8,301 nucleotides of DNA, taken from IMG/VR virus record IMGVR_UViG_2609460356_000006; one strand, written 5' to 3'. Source of the stretch: a virus. Lineage: Duplodnaviria > Heunggongvirae > Uroviricota > Caudoviricetes. Below, in pieces: positions 1 through 7,146 of the stretch; positions within the stretch are counted from its first letter, which is position 1, and each line of letters starts with the position of its first letter. The notes below the pieces were generated by a model. That model had not been told where the DNA came from. It was given only the letters and a program-made list of their open reading frames with translations, and did not search any database. A program made the position numbers and the translations under genes.

Positions 1-348
1 AAATCGCGCCAGCGCTGGCTGTTTTACGCGTATGACAGGCTCCGGAAGACGGTTGTTGCGCACGTATTCGGTGAACGCACTATGGCGACGCTGGGGCGTC
101 TTATGAGCCTGCTGTCACCCTTTGACGTGGTGATATGGATGACGGATGGCTGGCCGCTGTATGAATCCCGCCTGAAGGGAAAGCTGCACGTAATCAGCAA
201 GCGATATACGCAGCGAATTGAGCGGCATAACCTGAATCTGAGGCAGCACCTGGCACGGCTGGGACGGAAGTCGCTGTCGTTCTCAAAATCGGTGGAGCTG
301 CATGACAAAGTCATCGGGCATTATCTGAACATAAAACACTATCAATAA
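1..348 (+). CDS. insB: IS1 transposase InsB, C-terminal part (5'-truncated by window edge)
   Basis: Frame 1 is open from nt 1 ([38 protein letters not shown]...HYLNIKHYQ-stop); the 82..348 ORF is the tail of this frame. Recognised as InsB from memory. Confidence 0.9.
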
Positions 349-2647: not shown

Positions 2648-2838
2648 TTTGTCTCTCCCATGTGCAGCTCGGCGATTAATGCCCGGTGAATTTCCTGATT
2701 AAAATCACACGCAATAGAAATCAGATTCAGCAGCGTTTCTGAACATTCAGCAGAGGCTTTTTCCAGGATGGTTTCGTAAAGTGATGAAGCCAGCGCTGAT
2801 TTATATTCGGCCTGCTCCAGACAGATTGGCTCACGCAT
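2644..2838 (-). CDS. Hypothetical small protein (64 aa) in the replication operon
   Basis: ORF overlapping both neighbours by a few nt; no recognisable motif. Confidence 0.5.
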
Positions 2839-3022
2839 AGCGAACCTCCTGAACTGGTAGACGGCCAGCGCATACCATCACGCAGCCAGCCGGTGATTGC
2901 TCACGGGCTTCGCGCTCAGTGTTAGCTGTGATGTGAATGACGTTGCGACCGATGGCGCTCAGTGCAAGAAAACGCCAGATGTAGGACTTCCGCCCTTGCG
3001 GGTGTGTGATATGATCTTTCAT
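2831..3022 (-). CDS. Small Ash/Icd-like protein (63 aa), first gene of the leftward operon (position analogous to P4 kil)
   Basis: Internal ATG at 3022-3020 of the long 2831..3805 ORF, preceded by GAGG 5 nt upstream; product [63 protein letters not shown] resembles the Ash/Icd-like small proteins of P4-like islands (from memory). Confidence 0.6.
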
Positions 3023-3109
3023 AGCTGCCTCGTTACTTTCGCTAACGGTGGTGGTTAGAGGCCCGGTTAGTGTTCCACCACTGCCGGGCTTTGCTTTACT
3101 AAAAGTCAT

Positions 3110-3169
3110 GCAATGTAGTACATTGTCAACTCCACTACAGACTAGACCACAGGAGTTGACAATGTCAAC
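3110..3169. promoter_or_regulatory. Divergent control region with palindromic operator-like sites
   Basis: Perfect palindromes CAATGTAgTACATTG (3110-3124) and GTTGACAaTGTCAAC (3155-3169, centred on the RHH start codon), extra half-site TTGTCAAC (3123-3130); 13-bp inverted repeat CATTGTCAACTCC (3121-3133) / GGAGTTGACAATG (3152-3164). Confidence 0.5.
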
Positions 3170-3335
3170 AAGCGAAAATAAAGAGCGCCATGTTGTGCAG
3201 CTCAGACTCGATAAAGAACTGTCAGAGCGGCTCGCTTTAGCGATGAAAGAAGACGGTGACGATAATAAGTCGGGATGGATAAAACGCCTTTTGCGCCGTG
3301 AACTTGATAAGCGCGGCATCGAGCCAAAAGGCTGA
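3162..3335 (+). CDS. Ribbon-helix-helix-type small DNA-binding protein (57 aa), candidate repressor of the divergent operon
   Basis: ATG at 3162 preceded by AGGAG (3151-3155); N-terminal beta-strand pattern [12 protein letters not shown] followed by two predicted helices. The 3048 start of the ORF track lacks an RBS. Confidence 0.65.
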
Positions 3336-3421
3336 ACAGGGTTACTCCCCGTAATGCTGTGGACTGCCCCTCTTAAAAAGGGTCTGTTTTGCGCAACTAT
3401 TAATGAGTTGTGCAGAGGCTC

Positions 3422-3445
3422 CCCTCTTAAAGAGGGTTGGTTATC
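3422..3445 (+). terminator. Possible weak hairpin terminator
   Basis: CCCTC-TTAAA-GAGGG stem-loop (3422-3436) followed by a T-rich stretch; a similar but weaker copy at 3367-3382. Confidence 0.3.
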
Positions 3446-3654
3446 TTCGCAGCTCTCTACGTTTTTCGTCGGAGCCTCTAAACCACGTTTAACGTTGTTT
3501 TGCCATGAACCCGAATACTGTTCGCCTTTGTCTCGATCTCCGTACGTTAAACGTACGCGGTTAATTTGTGCGTACGGATTTCGTCGGCTCAAGGTTTGAC
3601 CACCAGCGGCAAGCCTGGTAATCTGGCGATGTTTCTGTAAAGCGGTATTGCACT

Positions 3655-3683
3655 GGCGGCCCGGCATGGCCGCCTTTGTTTTG
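3655..3683 (+). terminator. Rho-independent terminator for a plus-strand transcript
   Basis: Stem GGCGGCC (3655-3661) / GGCCGCC (3668-3674), 6-nt loop, followed by TTTGTTTTG (3675-3683). Confidence 0.6.
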
Positions 3684-3687
3684 CCTG

Positions 3688-4380
3688 TCATACAATAGCC
3701 TCCACTTTCAGCCCGCCAGCGGTATACCCCTGAACCCGAACACCATCGACGCGATGACGCTTTTTCGTCAGAAAGCGGATGTGATCTGCGTAGACGTACT
3801 GCCATTTACCATCGAGTGCCACACGTTTAAACCACGGATGAGGCTTAGATATGGTCTGGACAACTGGCGCGGAAGCCTTGCAGGGCGTGGGTTCTGCTGT
3901 GCATACCCCCTTATCGTTACCCGTTACTCTATACAGCCAGTAACTTGCCAGCTTCCCGGTCAATTTACGGGTGCGCACGGGGATATAACCCGCCTCACGC
4001 ATCGCCTTACCAAAAGTGGCATCGTCCGGGTAATACTGGCGGCGTAGTTCCGTAGATACTGAAACGGCAAAGCTGCGTTTAGTCGGGTATTCCTGCCACT
4101 GGCCGACAAATTCAAAAGGAAGACCATTAACCCTTCCTTTGGTCTTGTCCTTGCCGCTTATCCCTACATCATGGTCTGCCTCATGCACGGACACGCCGGA
4201 ACGCAGCCACACCAGCCCGTTACCGTTGTGGCGCAACCCCAGATCGGCAAGCGTAAATTCACCGCGATTAATGGGCGACCAGTCACCGGAAATAACCTGT
4301 TTACGGTTCGCTGAAATATCGTGCTGGCTGGCTACAGGGTGAGCGAATCCCTGCCCGTGGAGGGCATTAATCTTTTTCAT
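3688..4380 (-). CDS. Conserved hypothetical protein (230 aa) downstream of alpA; possibly the inovirus Gp2 / YfjJ-like family (low confidence)
   Basis: Long ORF with SD-like AGGT about 9 nt upstream, 20 nt after the AlpA-like stop (operon). Family guess rests on synteny in P4-like islands only. Confidence 0.75.
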
Positions 4381-4400: not shown

Positions 4401-4685
4401 TTAAGCAGATTTACGGCTGTATGGGTTATTGACGTTCTCTACTGCTGGCGGATTACGAACCCACCAGAGCACATCCGAAAGAAGCCAAGCACAGCTATTG
4501 CGGCCAAAGTGACAGCGCGGAGGGAAGCGCCCCTGCTGCTCCATCTTCCAGCGGCTGGAACGGGAAAGACTGGTGATCTCGCTGCATTCATCTTCACGGA
4601 TTCGGCGATCAAACTTAAAGCCGTACTCTTCTAAAAGGGTGCGGCGCTGTTCAGGATTTGGCGGGGTAAAGGTTATATTTTGCAT
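4401..4685 (-). CDS. alpA: AlpA/Vis-family phage transcriptional regulator (MerR-like HTH), 94 aa with N-terminal extension
   Basis: SLSRSSRW...GRFPPRCHFGRNSCAWLLSDVLWWV aligns by eye with the AlpA HTH and W-x3-EVxxW motifs; GGAGG upstream of the ATG. Confidence 0.8.
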   Translation of the reverse strand: MQNITFTPPNPEQRRTLLEEYGFKFDRRIREDECSEITSLSRSSRWKMEQQGRFPPRCHFGRNSCAWLLSDVLWWVRNPPAVENVNNPYSRKSA

Positions 4686-4737
4686 GCTGCCTCCACTGTT
4701 TCAATGTTATGCGAAGAGATTAGTGGATAAACGACCA

Positions 4738-4807
4738 GAATTTCCATTGATTCTGGAATCCTTTAAAAGAACATGCAATTCCATTGAAAGATAGAAATTC
4801 CATCAAG
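4738..4807. promoter_or_regulatory. Repeated AATT(T)CCATYRA motif upstream of alpA (three direct copies plus palindrome GATTCTGGAATC)
   Basis: TTCCATTGA at 4742-4750 and 4779-4787, TTCCATCAA at 4798-4806; palindrome 4750-4761; inverted copy TTTCAATG at 4698-4705. Confidence 0.35.
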
Positions 4808-4940
4808 ATAACGCTCCCCTGTTTAAAACAGTTTCCACAGTAATTTCAACGGCTGTCTCGAGAGAAAAAATCATGAATTTCAATAACTCGCCGAAGATCA
4901 CCGTTCTTTAACGATTTGATTCACCTTGGATTGTTCATAA

Positions 4941-5000
4941 CAAAGATGAACAATGATGAACGCTGATGAACAGTGATGAATAACCATGAACAAAGATGGA
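4941..5000. repeat. Six tandem 10-bp units nnnGATGAAC (iteron-like, TGTTCATC on the other strand), candidate ori
   Basis: GATGAAC at 4945, 4955, 4965, with GATGAAT at 4975, CATGAAC at 4985, GATGGA at 4995, all in strict 10-bp register; inverted TGTTCAT at 4932-4938. Confidence 0.5.
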
Positions 5001-5040
5001 AAAAGTTAGCAAGTAATGACCTAGTAGGGACCGTGGATGG

Positions 5041-5140
5041 AGCTAGGTATTGTTAGGTGCTGTCGGGTGCCGTTACGTGTCATAACGTGTCATTACGTGT
5101 CGTTGAATGCTGTTGAATGCTGTTGAATGCTGTTGAATGT
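5041..5140. repeat. Phased decamer array continuing the 10-bp register
   Basis: TGTYRGGTGC x2 (5051-5070), CRTWACGTGT x3 (5071-5100), YGTTGAATGY x4 (5101-5140); no unique spacers between units. Confidence 0.6.
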
Positions 5141-5275
5141 AACGGTAATACACATCAAATATAACAATTGAATCTCCTTGGCGATCATAGAATCGCCAAA
5201 AGCTCCAACAAATATAATTAATTAGTATTTTCACATGAAATATAAATAATACCTACTAACACTGCAAAATAATAT

Positions 5276-5926
5276 TCATTCCGTATAATAAATCGAATTT
5301 AATGCCTTTCGAATTTTCTCATATATTGCTGATTTAGATAATCCAGTTTTAGATATACCTTCCTCATCAGCTAATTTATATAGTTCGTTTAAAATAGCCG
5401 AGATGCTTGGTTTTTTAGAGGTGCCAAACGAATGGCCTATCTTATGTGCTATAAGCTTGACCAGCATCCCCATTAATTTATCATTATATTCCTTTTCATC
5501 TTCTTTACGATGCAAGCCGCGTTTGCTGCTTTTCAATGCAATTCCGACCTGTAAAAGCTCATCCCCTCCCATAGCATAAAGATGCTCTTTTCCTTTGTTT
5601 TGATTAGCAATTATAGCCACCGCCGCAAGGCATCTGTCCTTTATGGGTTGTGGTGTAATATCTTCATCAATAAGAGGATATGCCAGAGCAAACATATAGT
5701 CTGCGGGATAGGCTGTTGAGTTTCCACCTCGAAATAATTTAGATGCTGATAACCATCTACTCAGTTGTCGATAGTATATATTGTAAGCTTCAACTTTCGC
5801 TTCAGGGATATCAGCAGTTTTAACTGTCGGATCTACCCCACACATAAGTAGTGCAAGTTGTTTAATATTTAGCTCCGGGGCTTTGGCTTCTCGCTCGAAA
5901 ATACCCAATTTTAGAAAACTAGTCAT
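5276..5926 (-). CDS. AT-rich cargo protein of unknown function (216 aa) with a C-terminal HTH-like segment, start/stop-coupled to int
   Basis: ATG (5926-5924) overlaps the integrase stop as TAATG; sampled 60-nt lines give roughly 27-45% G+C against about 65% in a sampled line of the replication module; C-terminal ISKTGLSKSAIYEKIRKAL resembles an HTH; no family recognised. Confidence 0.75.
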   Translation of the reverse strand: MTSFLKLGIFEREAKAPELNIKQLALLMCGVDPTVKTADIPEAKVEAYNIYYRQLSRWLSASKLFRGGNSTAYPADYMFALAYPLIDEDITPQPIKDRCLAAVAIIANQNKGKEHLYAMGGDELLQVGIALKSSKRGLHRKEDEKEYNDKLMGMLVKLIAHKIGHSFGTSKKPSISAILNELYKLADEEGISKTGLSKSAIYEKIRKALNSIYYTE

Positions 5927-7146
5927 TATTCAGCCTTATTCAACAAAACAATGTTAGTGAATCCACCTGATAAAATATCAAGTCTGTCATACCATTTATT
6001 CAACGCATCCAGTTTCTCAGGCAAGTACAGACTACGGTTATAAATCGCCATGACTCCCGGCATTGAGTGCCCCAGCAACTGTTCGACAACGTGTGGTGCT
6101 ATACCCATATTATTCATATGCGTTGCTAAAGTTCGTCTTAGATCGTGCAGTGTCCATGGTTCAGAATGCCCTAGCTTTTTATAAACGCCGCGGCCCCACT
6201 GACTTACCGCTTCACTGCCTTTAACCGACCCAAGCAAAAGGCCGGATCGTTTCGTTTCATCATGCAGTATTTCAATGAATTTGCGCATGGCATCCGGCAC
6301 AGGTCTTACAATCTTCTCGCCACCCTTGCTGTGCTCTTTGGGAACTGTCCAGACCCAGGCATCCATATCCCATTCACTCCACTCTGATAGCCTGGCCTCC
6401 TGCGTTCGGCACCCAAACACTATTAAGATTGTCAGTAGCCTGGTGTAGTAAGGCATGAAGCAAGTGCCAGAGGAAATGGCAGCCCATAAATCGCCAGCCT
6501 CTTTATCGTTTAATACCCGGTCTTTTTTTGCCTGTTTTTTACCGACATCTGGAATTGTTAAATCTTCAAGCGCGGTACTCACAGCATAGCGACGAACCCG
6601 GCAGAATTTCAGGGCTTGTTTGCACATCTGGAACACATAACCTGCGGCGACTGGAGTTTTCTTTTTCATCCTGTCAAAGCAGTCAAGCCAGTATCGTGTT
6701 TCACAGTCAGCGAGCGCCATTTTCCCTATATAAGGATAAATGTGTTTTCGCAGCTCCGCTTTGTGCCGTTCAACATTCGCGCGGTTCTCTTCTGCATATT
6801 CGCGTATCCAGTATTCTATAGCTTCCTTAACAGTGACCGGTTTAAGGGTTTCCTGAGTAGTCAACGCCAACTGGTGCTTTGGATCTTTACCTGAGGCCAG
6901 CCACTGGCGGCATTTATCACGCGATGAACGGGCTTCTTTGAGGCTCATATCCGGGTATCGTCCCAGAGTCAGACGATGCAGCTTCTGCCCGTCAAGTCGG
7001 TAAGTAAACACCCAGCTAATACCACCAGCTTTAGTTACCTTGGCGCTCAGCCCGGCACCATCAGCATAGAACTCAATCTTACTGGCCGGGATACCATGTA
7101 ATCCCTTTAACTTCCTGTCGCTCAGTTTGTTAAGTTCGCCAGCCAT
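5926..7146 (-). CDS. int: Tyrosine site-specific integrase, P4-like family (406 aa)
   Basis: N-terminal arm-binding-type region (LSDRKLKGL...WVFTYRLDGQKLHRLTLGRYPDMSLKEAR), catalytic motifs HDLRRT, LLGHS and downstream Tyr; N-terminus faces the host junction. Confidence 0.9.
   Translation of the reverse strand: MAGELNKLSDRKLKGLHGIPASKIEFYADGAGLSAKVTKAGGISWVFTYRLDGQKLHRLTLGRYPDMSLKEARSSRDKCRQWLASGKDPKHQLALTTQETLKPVTVKEAIEYWIREYAEENRANVERHKAELRKHIYPYIGKMALADCETRYWLDCFDRMKKKTPVAAGYVFQMCKQALKFCRVRRYAVSTALEDLTIPDVGKKQAKKDRVLNDKEAGDLWAAISSGTCFMPYYTRLLTILIVFGCRTQEARLSEWSEWDMDAWVWTVPKEHSKGGEKIVRPVPDAMRKFIEILHDETKRSGLLLGSVKGSEAVSQWGRGVYKKLGHSEPWTLHDLRRTLATHMNNMGIAPHVVEQLLGHSMPGVMAIYNRSLYLPEKLDALNKWYDRLDILSGGFTNIVLLNKAE

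Follow-up and report, generated by a model that had tools for sequence, protein, structure and literature searches.

A ribbon-helix-helix gene and its matched repeats as a candidate repressor cassette at the replication promoter of a capsid-forming satellite

The DNA stretch analysed here (8,301 nucleotides, hereafter "the window"; IMG/VR record IMGVR_UViG_2609460356_000006, filed under Caudoviricetes) is one end of an Escherichia coli chromosomal island. All of the island genes in the window lie on the minus strand except one, a gene for a 57-residue protein with a predicted ribbon-helix-helix (RHH) fold. Comparison with related satellites suggests that this RHH protein is probably an autoregulated, allele-specific repressor of the promoter that serves the facing Icd-like gene and the replication genes behind it. 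The initial annotation had put the gene forward as a candidate repressor of the island. The repressor part of that idea is strongly supported by comparison, because the repeats in front of the gene co-vary with the class of RHH protein; its island-wide scope is not, the repeat motif being present at one promoter region only.

Repeats in the gap and the protein classes they accompany

The RHH gene and the Icd-like gene diverge across a gap of 139 bp (with the Icd-like start placed at 3022, not 3040), which contains two perfect 15-bp palindromes, sites B and C, and a perfect inverted repeat with 14-bp arms (Table 1). The core of site B, CAATG-N5-CATTG, is nearly invariant in the window-type family, and site C holds a third CAATGT hexamer (3160–3165). 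Three of the six CAATGT copies in the 8.3-kb window fall inside 55 bp of the gap. The 11-mer ACATTGTCAAC (at most one mismatch) has three copies in the 19-kb full island plus flanks, all of them in the gap; none of 200 shuffles reached three. The gap repeats are non-random, far beyond chance. An early description of operator-like palindromes in the gap thus holds for sites B and C and for the 14-bp inverted repeat, but not for two stem-loops closer to the Icd-like gene (HP1 and HP2), which on comparative grounds are leader stem-loops of the Icd operon (or a plus-strand terminator-like hairpin) rather than operators.

The position of the RHH gene recurs in every satellite inspected: a slot holding a small plus-strand gene that lies tail-to-tail with the alpA side and head-to-head with the Icd-like gene, across 127–199 bp. 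The islands that carry the slot differ in their replicases, integrases and attachment (att) sites. They include (i) Klebsiella islands whose replicase is of the DUF927 type and which have a protease-capsid fusion, (ii) E. coli phage-inducible chromosomal islands (PICIs) at tRNA-Pro, cspD, nfeF and other sites, (iii) a P4-like element and (iv) the 15-kb Pasteurella element Pmp8. The gene across from the slot is Icd-like in most complete islands inspected. Among 18 loci, the slot proteins form eight classes that differ chiefly in the predicted DNA-reading strand: HVVQLRLD (the window type), PTFQIRIT (the type of sister island L002, annotated "HicB family antitoxin"), PPFHMRIA, TKKNIRFE (annotated "YlcI/YnfO"), PPFQFRLD (IncR plasmids), PQYQMRLA (Pasteurella), and QSVTARIA and QMTTVRIP (YlcI/YnfO proper). 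Common to the classes are a strand Arg, a Gly turn and a W-x-K that opens helix 2, and most share the ending RGIEPKG.

Co-variation was tabulated over these 18 loci and eight beta-strand classes. Each repeat motif occurs at least twice with its own RHH class and never with another. Only the IncR plasmid class departs from this: its selected 8-mer gave a single hit, and the other repeat copies were read by eye (TGTAATG/CATTACA, several copies). The window family carries ACATTG.../...CAATGT, the L002 type ACGTACGTACAT (twice), the TKKNIRFE islands TGGTACGTACCA (twice), and Pasteurella ATGGTAATTACCAT and GGTATATACC. One class has the pair ATGTGTACACCTAT/ATAGGTGTACACAT, and the class-specific motifs also include GTGTACACCTAT, TGTCTTACAC (three times) and TGAAATACAC (twice). 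Each class's repeat is found at the same two places, namely over the putative −10 of the RHH gene and over the −35 or the spacer of the leftward promoter; in classes other than that of the window, the site-C repeat sits in the spacer. Shorter-gap classes have one copy ~42–46 bp before the ATG and the other abutting or covering the ATG. The YlcI-proper classes have purely direct repeats, with copies ~76 and 31 bp before the ATG.

Across the sequences compared, it is the RHH class that the motif goes with, rather than AlpA, Icd, the integrase or the primase. A Raoultella island has the identical 14-bp repeat together with an RHH protein 91% identical to that of the window, its AlpA, Icd and Int proteins being 38%, 40% and 61% identical, respectively. 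Loci from Photorhabdus and Symbiopectobacterium keep the repeat with no detectable AlpA homologue, and four TKKNIRFE islands have TGGTACGTACCA in common despite differing primases, integrases and att sites. The proteins of L002, the closest sister island, are close to those of the window (Icd 94%, AlpA 97%, Int 98% and primase 99% identical), and the two islands are 88–97% identical over the Icd, leader, primase, alpA and int regions. The unalignable block between them at 3098–3314 is exactly the repeats plus RHH codons 1–51, with the right boundary of the swapped segment (~3314) inside the RHH gene. Together, the L002 comparison and the 18-locus table point to the RHH protein as the reader of the repeats.

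The gene, its promoters and its island

In a 98.8% identical E. coli island, RefSeq annotates the same open reading frame (ORF) as a hypothetical protein. There are 102 homologues across Enterobacterales (Escherichia, Klebsiella, Citrobacter, Morganella, Serratia, Yersinia, Pectobacterium, Photorhabdus, Xenorhabdus, Regiella and others), all at least 72% identical and all unnamed or "hypothetical"; 21 positions are invariant in a sample of 25 of them. Measured against the copies in Photorhabdus and Raoultella, the protein keeps 42 of its 43 core residues, while 65–78% of synonymous sites differ and pS values of 0.65–0.95 put these sites near saturation. Retention of the core despite such divergence indicates strong purifying selection and no chance ORF; on this evidence, 3162–3335 is a real gene.

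Structure prediction, which the initial annotation had named as the check on its RHH assignment, upholds that assignment. The model contains a beta-strand (HVVQLRLD, residues 10–17), helix 1 (18–31), helix 2 (36–50) and the tail GIEPKG. This strand-helix-helix fold spans ~45 residues, and CopG-family structures are among its best matches. At the sequence level, matches to curated RHH models are weak (Pfam RHH_1 reaches 14 bits where 20.5 is the cut-off, with E=0.05; the NikR N-terminus has E=0.035 and the Arc-like PHROG E=0.034), and a sequence-profile search of the PDB with the RHH protein gave no meaningful relative. We propose that the protein is a small dimeric DNA-binding protein whose strands would pair into a DNA-reading sheet, a reading indirectly supported by the co-variation of the repeats with the strand residues. 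The last seven codons (window 3315–3335, RGIEPKG) are common to RHH classes with differing DNA-reading parts, and are the same in L002, L035–L037, L043 and L044; this tail may be a plain part of the conserved backbone, or a common docking or degradation signal.

The nearest named genes are YlcI/YnfO (NCBIfam NF041551, Pfam DUF3950) and the "HicB family antitoxin" genes of PICIs, which share the slot, the length and the layout of strand, helix, Gly-rich turn and W-x-K helix. The window family aligns with the PTFQIRIT protein at a probability of 94.6%. That protein passes the YlcI_YnfO_N cut-off of 30 bits (30.1), as do the L035-type (31.1) and L028-type (64.8) proteins, and it also matches the Pfam HicB RHH region. 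The window protein, in contrast, falls below the curated models: at E up to 1, neither NF041551 nor DUF3950 nor the HicB models match it. By sequence comparison it is a relative of YlcI/YnfO, but no member by the curated test.

Promoter positions in the window were transferred by alignment from relatives in which a consensus scan called promoters. The leftward promoter, with its −35 TTGACA over RHH codons 1–3, was called in L021 and L012 (in each case a 16-nt spacer, TATATT and 11/12 matches), in L002 (18-nt spacer, TAGCAT) and in L037 (18-nt spacer, TATGTT). In the window, its putative −35 (TTGACA) is the reverse complement of RHH codons 1–3, and the TA at 3143–3144 in its −10 is invariant across 15 loci. 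The N-terminal Met-Ser-Thr (ATGTCAAC) is kept among RHH classes otherwise 39–51% identical, a retention that fits a second constraint on these codons from the putative opposite-strand −35. The rightward promoter was called in L012 as TTTACA-18-TACATT, and TACATT is nearly invariant in the alignment. With the promoters so placed, the predicted leftward and rightward starts nearly coincide (near 3131–3132), and polymerase would thus be unable to occupy both promoters together; site B would also lie at about +7 to +21 of the leftward transcript.

The leader between this gap and the Icd-like gene behaves differently from the repeats. HP1, HP2 and the invariant TGGTTAGA box are kept in 15–16 loci drawn from different genera, and islands that carry another RHH class are among them. 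HP2 pairing is maintained by compensatory changes at 5 of 11 pairs, and the HP1 arms seem to co-change among loci (CATTA/TAATG, CGATA/TATCG) in an unscored, by-eye reading of the alignment. HP2 is terminator-like on the plus strand, yet no gene precedes it there; as for its ending a plus-strand antisense RNA against the Icd start, a promoter scan of 2900–3800 found no plus-strand promoter within the Icd gene. An attenuator in which the HP2 GUGGUGG pairs with a downstream CCACCAC was considered and dropped, the Klebsiella copy showing no conservation.

On the other side of the RHH gene, the intrinsic terminator at 3655–3684 is kept in position and shape behind the RHH gene in Klebsiella, Raoultella and YlcI-type islands, with a changed stem sequence. 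All terminator-like sites between orf230 and the Icd gene are on the plus strand. The stretch 3336–3690 folds far better than its shuffles (−129 kcal/mol, z = −5.0), and contains paired CCCCTCTTAAA(A/G)AGGG hairpins and CGTACG-rich inverted repeats with no Rfam match. Only its last ~95 nt, including the plus-strand terminator, recur in other islands, such as those of Raoultella and Klebsiella. The stretch might serve as a long 3' untranslated region, a small RNA or protein-binding DNA.

The island adjoins yhdJ (7411 onward). The orientation first given for the RHH gene, opposite to the operon from the Icd-like gene to the primase, is confirmed, and the flanking island genes are all on the minus strand. 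A complete copy, 98.8% identical, is present in E. coli OW1E2 (NZ_CP067245) and adds genes for a major capsid protein, a prohead protease, a portal, head-closure and connector proteins and an HNH protein, which identify the element as a capsid-forming PICI-type satellite. The features that define Gram-negative PICIs and those of the capsid-forming kind (cf-PICIs) are present: int, alpA and primase in one direction (minus), the element's own capsid and packaging genes, and an att site. In the Klebsiella copies, fis marks the island's far end; PICIs are known to integrate at fis (PMC10111431), and capsid-forming PICI-type satellites have been described (10.1101/2022.09.08.507074). Gene content, then, places the island among the capsid-forming PICI-type satellites; its site is fis/yhdJ, and in the window it is truncated by IS1. 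Sister islands align with the window only from 364, and this boundary, together with the IS1 fragment, indicates that the window copy has been cut or interrupted just past the primase. Loss of its capsid/packaging module, or separation from it, is probable, and the copy may no longer be mobile.

The initial annotation had viewed the island in terms of phage P4. This frame is not borne out: complete copies have their own capsid and packaging genes, no C4/isrK-type RNA was found in the window, and the known control of such satellites is the activator AlpA (PMC6092414). None of the P4 genes sid, delta, psu and epsilon is among the annotated ORFs of the window. An Rfam scan of the whole window (E up to 1) gave three chance-level matches only, with no C4, isrK or other immunity RNA, and a tRNA scan of the window found no tRNA, the att site being fis/yhdJ. 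Two further window ORFs, orf230 and orf216, match no Pfam or NCBIfam family; the sole match of orf216 is a PHROG with no assigned function. Three 10-bp tandem-repeat arrays lie upstream of alpA, between alpA and orf216 (window 4939–5139; Table 1). They resemble iterons, and could be AlpA, integrase-arm or origin sites.

Table 1. Features of the window (positions in the 8,301-nt stretch; promoters are alignment-based placements).
Feature	Position	Strand	Remarks
IS1 fragment	1–348		InsB C-terminal part is ORF 82–348; just past primase stop
Primase, D5/P4-type	501–2270	−	
Three small ORFs		−	Between Icd-like gene and primase; one is a DUF4222 protein
Icd-like gene	2831–3022	−	NCBIfam phage_ICD_like, 5e-15; opens operon facing RHH gene
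HP1, small stem-loop	3031–3047		CGTTA-N7-TAACG; adjoins Shine-Dalgarno of Icd-like gene
Conserved box	3052–3059		TGGTTAGA; between HP1 and HP2
HP2, stem-loop	3061–3089		GCCCGG..AGTG/CACT..CCGGGC, then CTTTGCTTT; leader of Icd-like operon; terminator-like on + strand only
Putative RHH promoter	3095–3124	+	−35 TTTACT (3095–3100), 18-nt spacer, −10 TACATT (3119–3124)
Site B, perfect 15-bp palindrome	3111–3125		CAATGTAgTACATTG (CAATGTA-G-TACATTG); two inverted CAATGT hexamers; candidate operator over −10 of putative RHH promoter
14-bp inverted repeat, left arm	3120–3133		ACATTGTCAACTCC
Putative leftward promoter of Icd-like/replication operon	3139–3168	−	−35 TTGACA (3168 to 3163), 18-nt spacer, −10 TAGTCT (3144 to 3139)
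Shine-Dalgarno of RHH gene	3152–3155	+	GGAG, 6 nt before ATG; within right arm of 14-bp inverted repeat; read from sequence
14-bp inverted repeat, right arm	3152–3165		GGAGTTGACAATGT; spans Shine-Dalgarno and ATG of RHH gene
Site C, perfect 15-bp palindrome	3155–3169		GTTGACAaTGTCAAC (GTTGACA-A-TGTCAAC); centred on A of RHH ATG; candidate operator over −35 of leftward promoter
RHH gene	3162–3335	+	57 aa; ATG at 3162; only + strand island gene in window
Noncoding stretch	3336–3654	+	RHH stop to terminator
Intrinsic terminator of RHH transcript	3655–3684	+ only	GGCGGCC-loop-GGCCGCC, then TTTGTTTT
orf230	3688–4380	−	
alpA	4401–4685	−	Pfam Phage_AlpA, 5e-10
Tandem array	4939–4998		AACAATGATG, x6
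Tandem array	5075–5101		ACGTGTCATA, x2.7
Tandem array	5102–5139		GTTGAATGCT, x3.8, 100% match
orf216	5276–5926	−	
Integrase (int)	5926–7146	−	

Proposed mechanism and competing explanations

The mechanism that we favour can be set out in a few steps. The RHH protein would recognize the CAATGT-type repeats of the 139-bp gap, binding (i) site B, over the −10 of its own putative promoter and just downstream of the leftward start, and (ii) site C, over the −35 of the leftward promoter that would drive the Icd-like gene, the three small ORFs and the primase. In intact islands, this leftward operon probably extends to the co-directional genes beyond the primase. With both sites occupied, the Icd/replication promoter would be shut in the resting island, and the level of the RHH protein would be held low by negative autoregulation. 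Protein and sites would thereby form one exchangeable specificity cassette, with related satellites carrying other class/repeat pairs at the same positions. Binding by the RHH protein, the promoter positions and the sign of regulation are all inferred. How repression might be relieved is a matter of speculation. AlpA-dependent transcription could read leftward, antisense through the RHH gene and into the Icd operon, and so bypass or displace the repressor; such read-through is conceivable because the sole terminator between alpA/orf230 and the RHH gene works on the plus strand. A Pseudomonas protein that is also named AlpA is a processive antiterminator (PMC7969949, PMC9371919), and to link its activity to read-through in this island would be speculation.

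Several observations weigh against this proposal. Firstly, the structure of the RHH protein is a monomer model only, and the dimeric sheet is assumed. Secondly, the promoter scan called no promoter, leftward or rightward, in window positions 2900–3800, and the poor leftward −10 (TAGTCT) means that the window promoter may be weak or activator-dependent. Thirdly, the window and L002 differ in three more segments (2286–2530, 3532–4313 and 4709–5982), such that this pair alone cannot single out the RHH gene. Fourthly, sites B and C complement each other in the classes with the shorter gap, which for them makes an RNA or cruciform hairpin possible. Finally, no copy of the operator motif was found near alpA or elsewhere in the 19-kb island locus. 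Confinement of the motif to one promoter region means that there is no simple island-wide regulon, and that the protein alone is no master repressor of the Stl type known from Staphylococcus aureus pathogenicity islands (SaPIs); a regulator that acts locally, at this promoter region, fits better than a master repressor of the entire island.

Known systems offer partial parallels. Mnt and Arc, of the phage P22 immI region, are small stand-alone RHH repressors that act at palindromic operators in a compact region of tightly interlocked opposed promoters; beyond the fold, they have no sequence relationship to the window protein (15–18% identity). In the icd-ant immI region of phage P1, the controlled operon begins with icd; likewise, an Icd-like gene opens the operon opposite the RHH gene. 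Unlike in P1, the operon here continues into replication genes, with no antirepressor. P1 and P4 use antisense or CI RNA at this point, whereas the Rfam scan found no RNA of this kind in the window. CopG (pMV158) and omega (pSM19035) are RHH repressors of 45–70 residues that act on a replication-gene promoter through short direct or inverted repeats. The RHH protein resembles CopG in size and fold; it has no sequence similarity to CopG or omega and, unlike CopG, is encoded on the strand opposite to the operon that it would control. Stl proteins are larger helix-turn-helix proteins. Like the window gene, the Stl/Rpr genes of Gram-positive PICIs (SaPIs) are satellite-encoded regulator genes that lie opposite the replication module and exist in many allelic forms (PMC6092414). 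Stl, however, runs in the same direction as int, controls the island as a whole and releases its repression on binding a helper-phage protein (PMC6092414), while the window gene is opposite to int as well and its motif is present at one promoter region only.

The CopG parallel suggests a different role for the same biochemistry. Rather than silencing the resting island, the RHH protein might repress the replication promoter in response to gene dosage, and so curb runaway replication once the island has been induced and excised. This differs from the favoured repressor in role and timing, and is compatible with all of the data. The controlled operon ends in a primase/replicase, the protein is CopG-sized with CopG-family structures among its best matches, and the motif occurs at this promoter only; a brake of this kind would also be useful, since AlpA overexpression by itself leads to uncontrolled, harmful PICI replication (PMC6092414). 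Two points speak against it. Decayed remnants and IncR plasmids keep the RHH gene and an Icd-like stub, with no replicase. In addition, the RHH gene faces its operon, while CopG, the first gene of the operon that it represses, is co-transcribed with the rep gene. We consider a copy-number brake unlikely.

An antitoxin-like role was an alternative from the outset. In this reading, the RHH gene and the Icd-like gene form an addiction-type pair, in which the RHH protein represses or neutralizes a cell-division inhibitor and the pair persists for that reason. In its favour, relatives bear the annotation "HicB family antitoxin", most complete islands inspected have an Icd-like facing gene, and this corner is all of the island that persists in the remnants of Leminorella and Kosakonia and on about 109 plasmids. 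P1 Icd does inhibit cell division; in this reading the present Icd-like proteins would be toxic too. However, there is no co-transcribed toxin: as stated initially, no partner toxin ORF is visible downstream, where 352 bp (3336–3687) are noncoding and are followed by the convergent orf230. In relatives, the RHH gene is directly followed by a terminator and then by convergent alpA. The tail after helix 2 has seven residues only (RGIEPKG), with no toxin-binding extension and so no toxin-binding domain, and in Kosakonia-type remnants the Icd-like ORF has decayed to 40 residues while the RHH gene is intact. Because no partner gene is present, an antitoxin role is unlikely, and guardianship of the Icd-like gene strikes us as improbable.

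Least probable of all is that the inverted repeat acts as RNA, its 14-nt arms pairing in a transcript to hide the RHH Shine-Dalgarno and AUG or to pause leftward read-through, with the protein's target elsewhere (e.g., a helper phage or rival satellite): the arms do co-change among sub-lineages (TCAAC/GTTGA versus GGTGTT/AACACC), the right arm spans the Shine-Dalgarno and ATG, and other stem-loops exist in the region (HP2 having scored compensatory changes), but the predicted starts near 3131–3132 leave neither transcript with both arms, the direct repeats of the YlcI-proper classes are unable to pair, and palindromes at fixed promoter positions that change with the strand residues of the protein are what a protein operator is expected to show.

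The slot in other satellites and what it may mean

Parts of the same regulatory corner are found outside complete islands. An IncR plasmid (NZ_CP076012; L043, 3760–4180) and about 109 other plasmids of Klebsiella, E. coli and Salmonella carry a 59-residue homologue (49% identity), the same leader hairpins, their own TGTAATG/CATTACA repeats and an Icd-like N-terminal stub; what these plasmids carry is a piece of the regulatory corner of a satellite. In Leminorella (L029, 7358–8177), Kosakonia (L033, 7153–8174) and Tenebrionibacter (L031, 7340–9188), the RHH gene and one or two facing small ORFs are all that lies between housekeeping genes. Some chromosomal remnants of this set have two RHH paralogues in tandem, or a 316-residue gene after the RHH gene; Kosakonia-type remnants are those with the shortened Icd-like ORF. 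In E. coli SCU-171 (L028, 6192–7096), the slot contains three plus-strand genes: a YlcI/YnfO protein at the promoter region, a 74-residue coiled-coil-like protein and a window-type RHH protein (start read as TTG). The slot is therefore able to hold stacked cassettes. The Pasteurella "phage" Pmp8 (OR544139, 15.3 kb; L044) was deposited as a phage and has the layout of a capsid-forming satellite, with an excisionase/AlpA, a slot RHH gene, a primase, a large terminase and, in the Icd position, a gene that bears the label "transcriptional repressor". Icd-like families have the same label in PHROG, and it seems inherited rather than tested.

These genes have been noted before, with little said of what they do. 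A 2026 survey of Enterobacter counts HicB and YlcI/YnfO among the accessory genes that PICIs, cf-PICIs and P4-like elements carry, and gives no function (PMC13612085); the cf-PICI preprint mentions just a variable gene, of unassigned function, downstream of alpA; and a survey of fis-site and helper-embedded PICIs distinguishes integration, Bro, replication and late zones, with genes essentially unidirectional (PMC10111431). Our literature search turned up nothing functional on any PICI or satellite regulator that is of the RHH or YlcI/YnfO kind or linked to Icd, in a search that covers subscription journals poorly and leaves a prior description possible. The type of protein, a small RHH repressor, is ordinary; its proposed role as an allelic specificity cassette at the replication promoter of a Gram-negative satellite appears to be undescribed.

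The only control described for Gram-negative PICIs, including capsid-forming ones that move between genera, is the activator AlpA, which switches on downstream island genes; the existence of a repressor has been called "unclear", and the contrast with Gram-positive islands a mystery (PMC6092414). A broader and more tentative possibility, to which we give limited credence, is that the allelic RHH-plus-operator cassettes of the alpA/Icd slot are this missing repressor layer. They would be immunity-type modules, comparable with lambdoid imm regions or SaPI Stl alleles, that silence the Icd/replication/packaging operon and define mutually exclusive groups among co-resident and incoming satellites. 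Helper-dependent induction would then have to remove or bypass the cassette; antisense read-through driven by AlpA is one conceivable route, and a factor docking on the GIEPKG tail, which most classes share, is another.

Islands with the slot are found from the Enterobacterales through to the Pasteurellaceae. Should the slot genes prove to be specificity-matched repressors of replication promoters, the regulatory logic of these satellites would become a two-layer switch that is directly testable, and genes now listed as "hypothetical", "YlcI/YnfO" or "HicB antitoxin" would gain a function. Satellites could then be sorted by immunity group, and the cassettes would provide orthogonal repressor/operator pairs for engineered PICI vectors.

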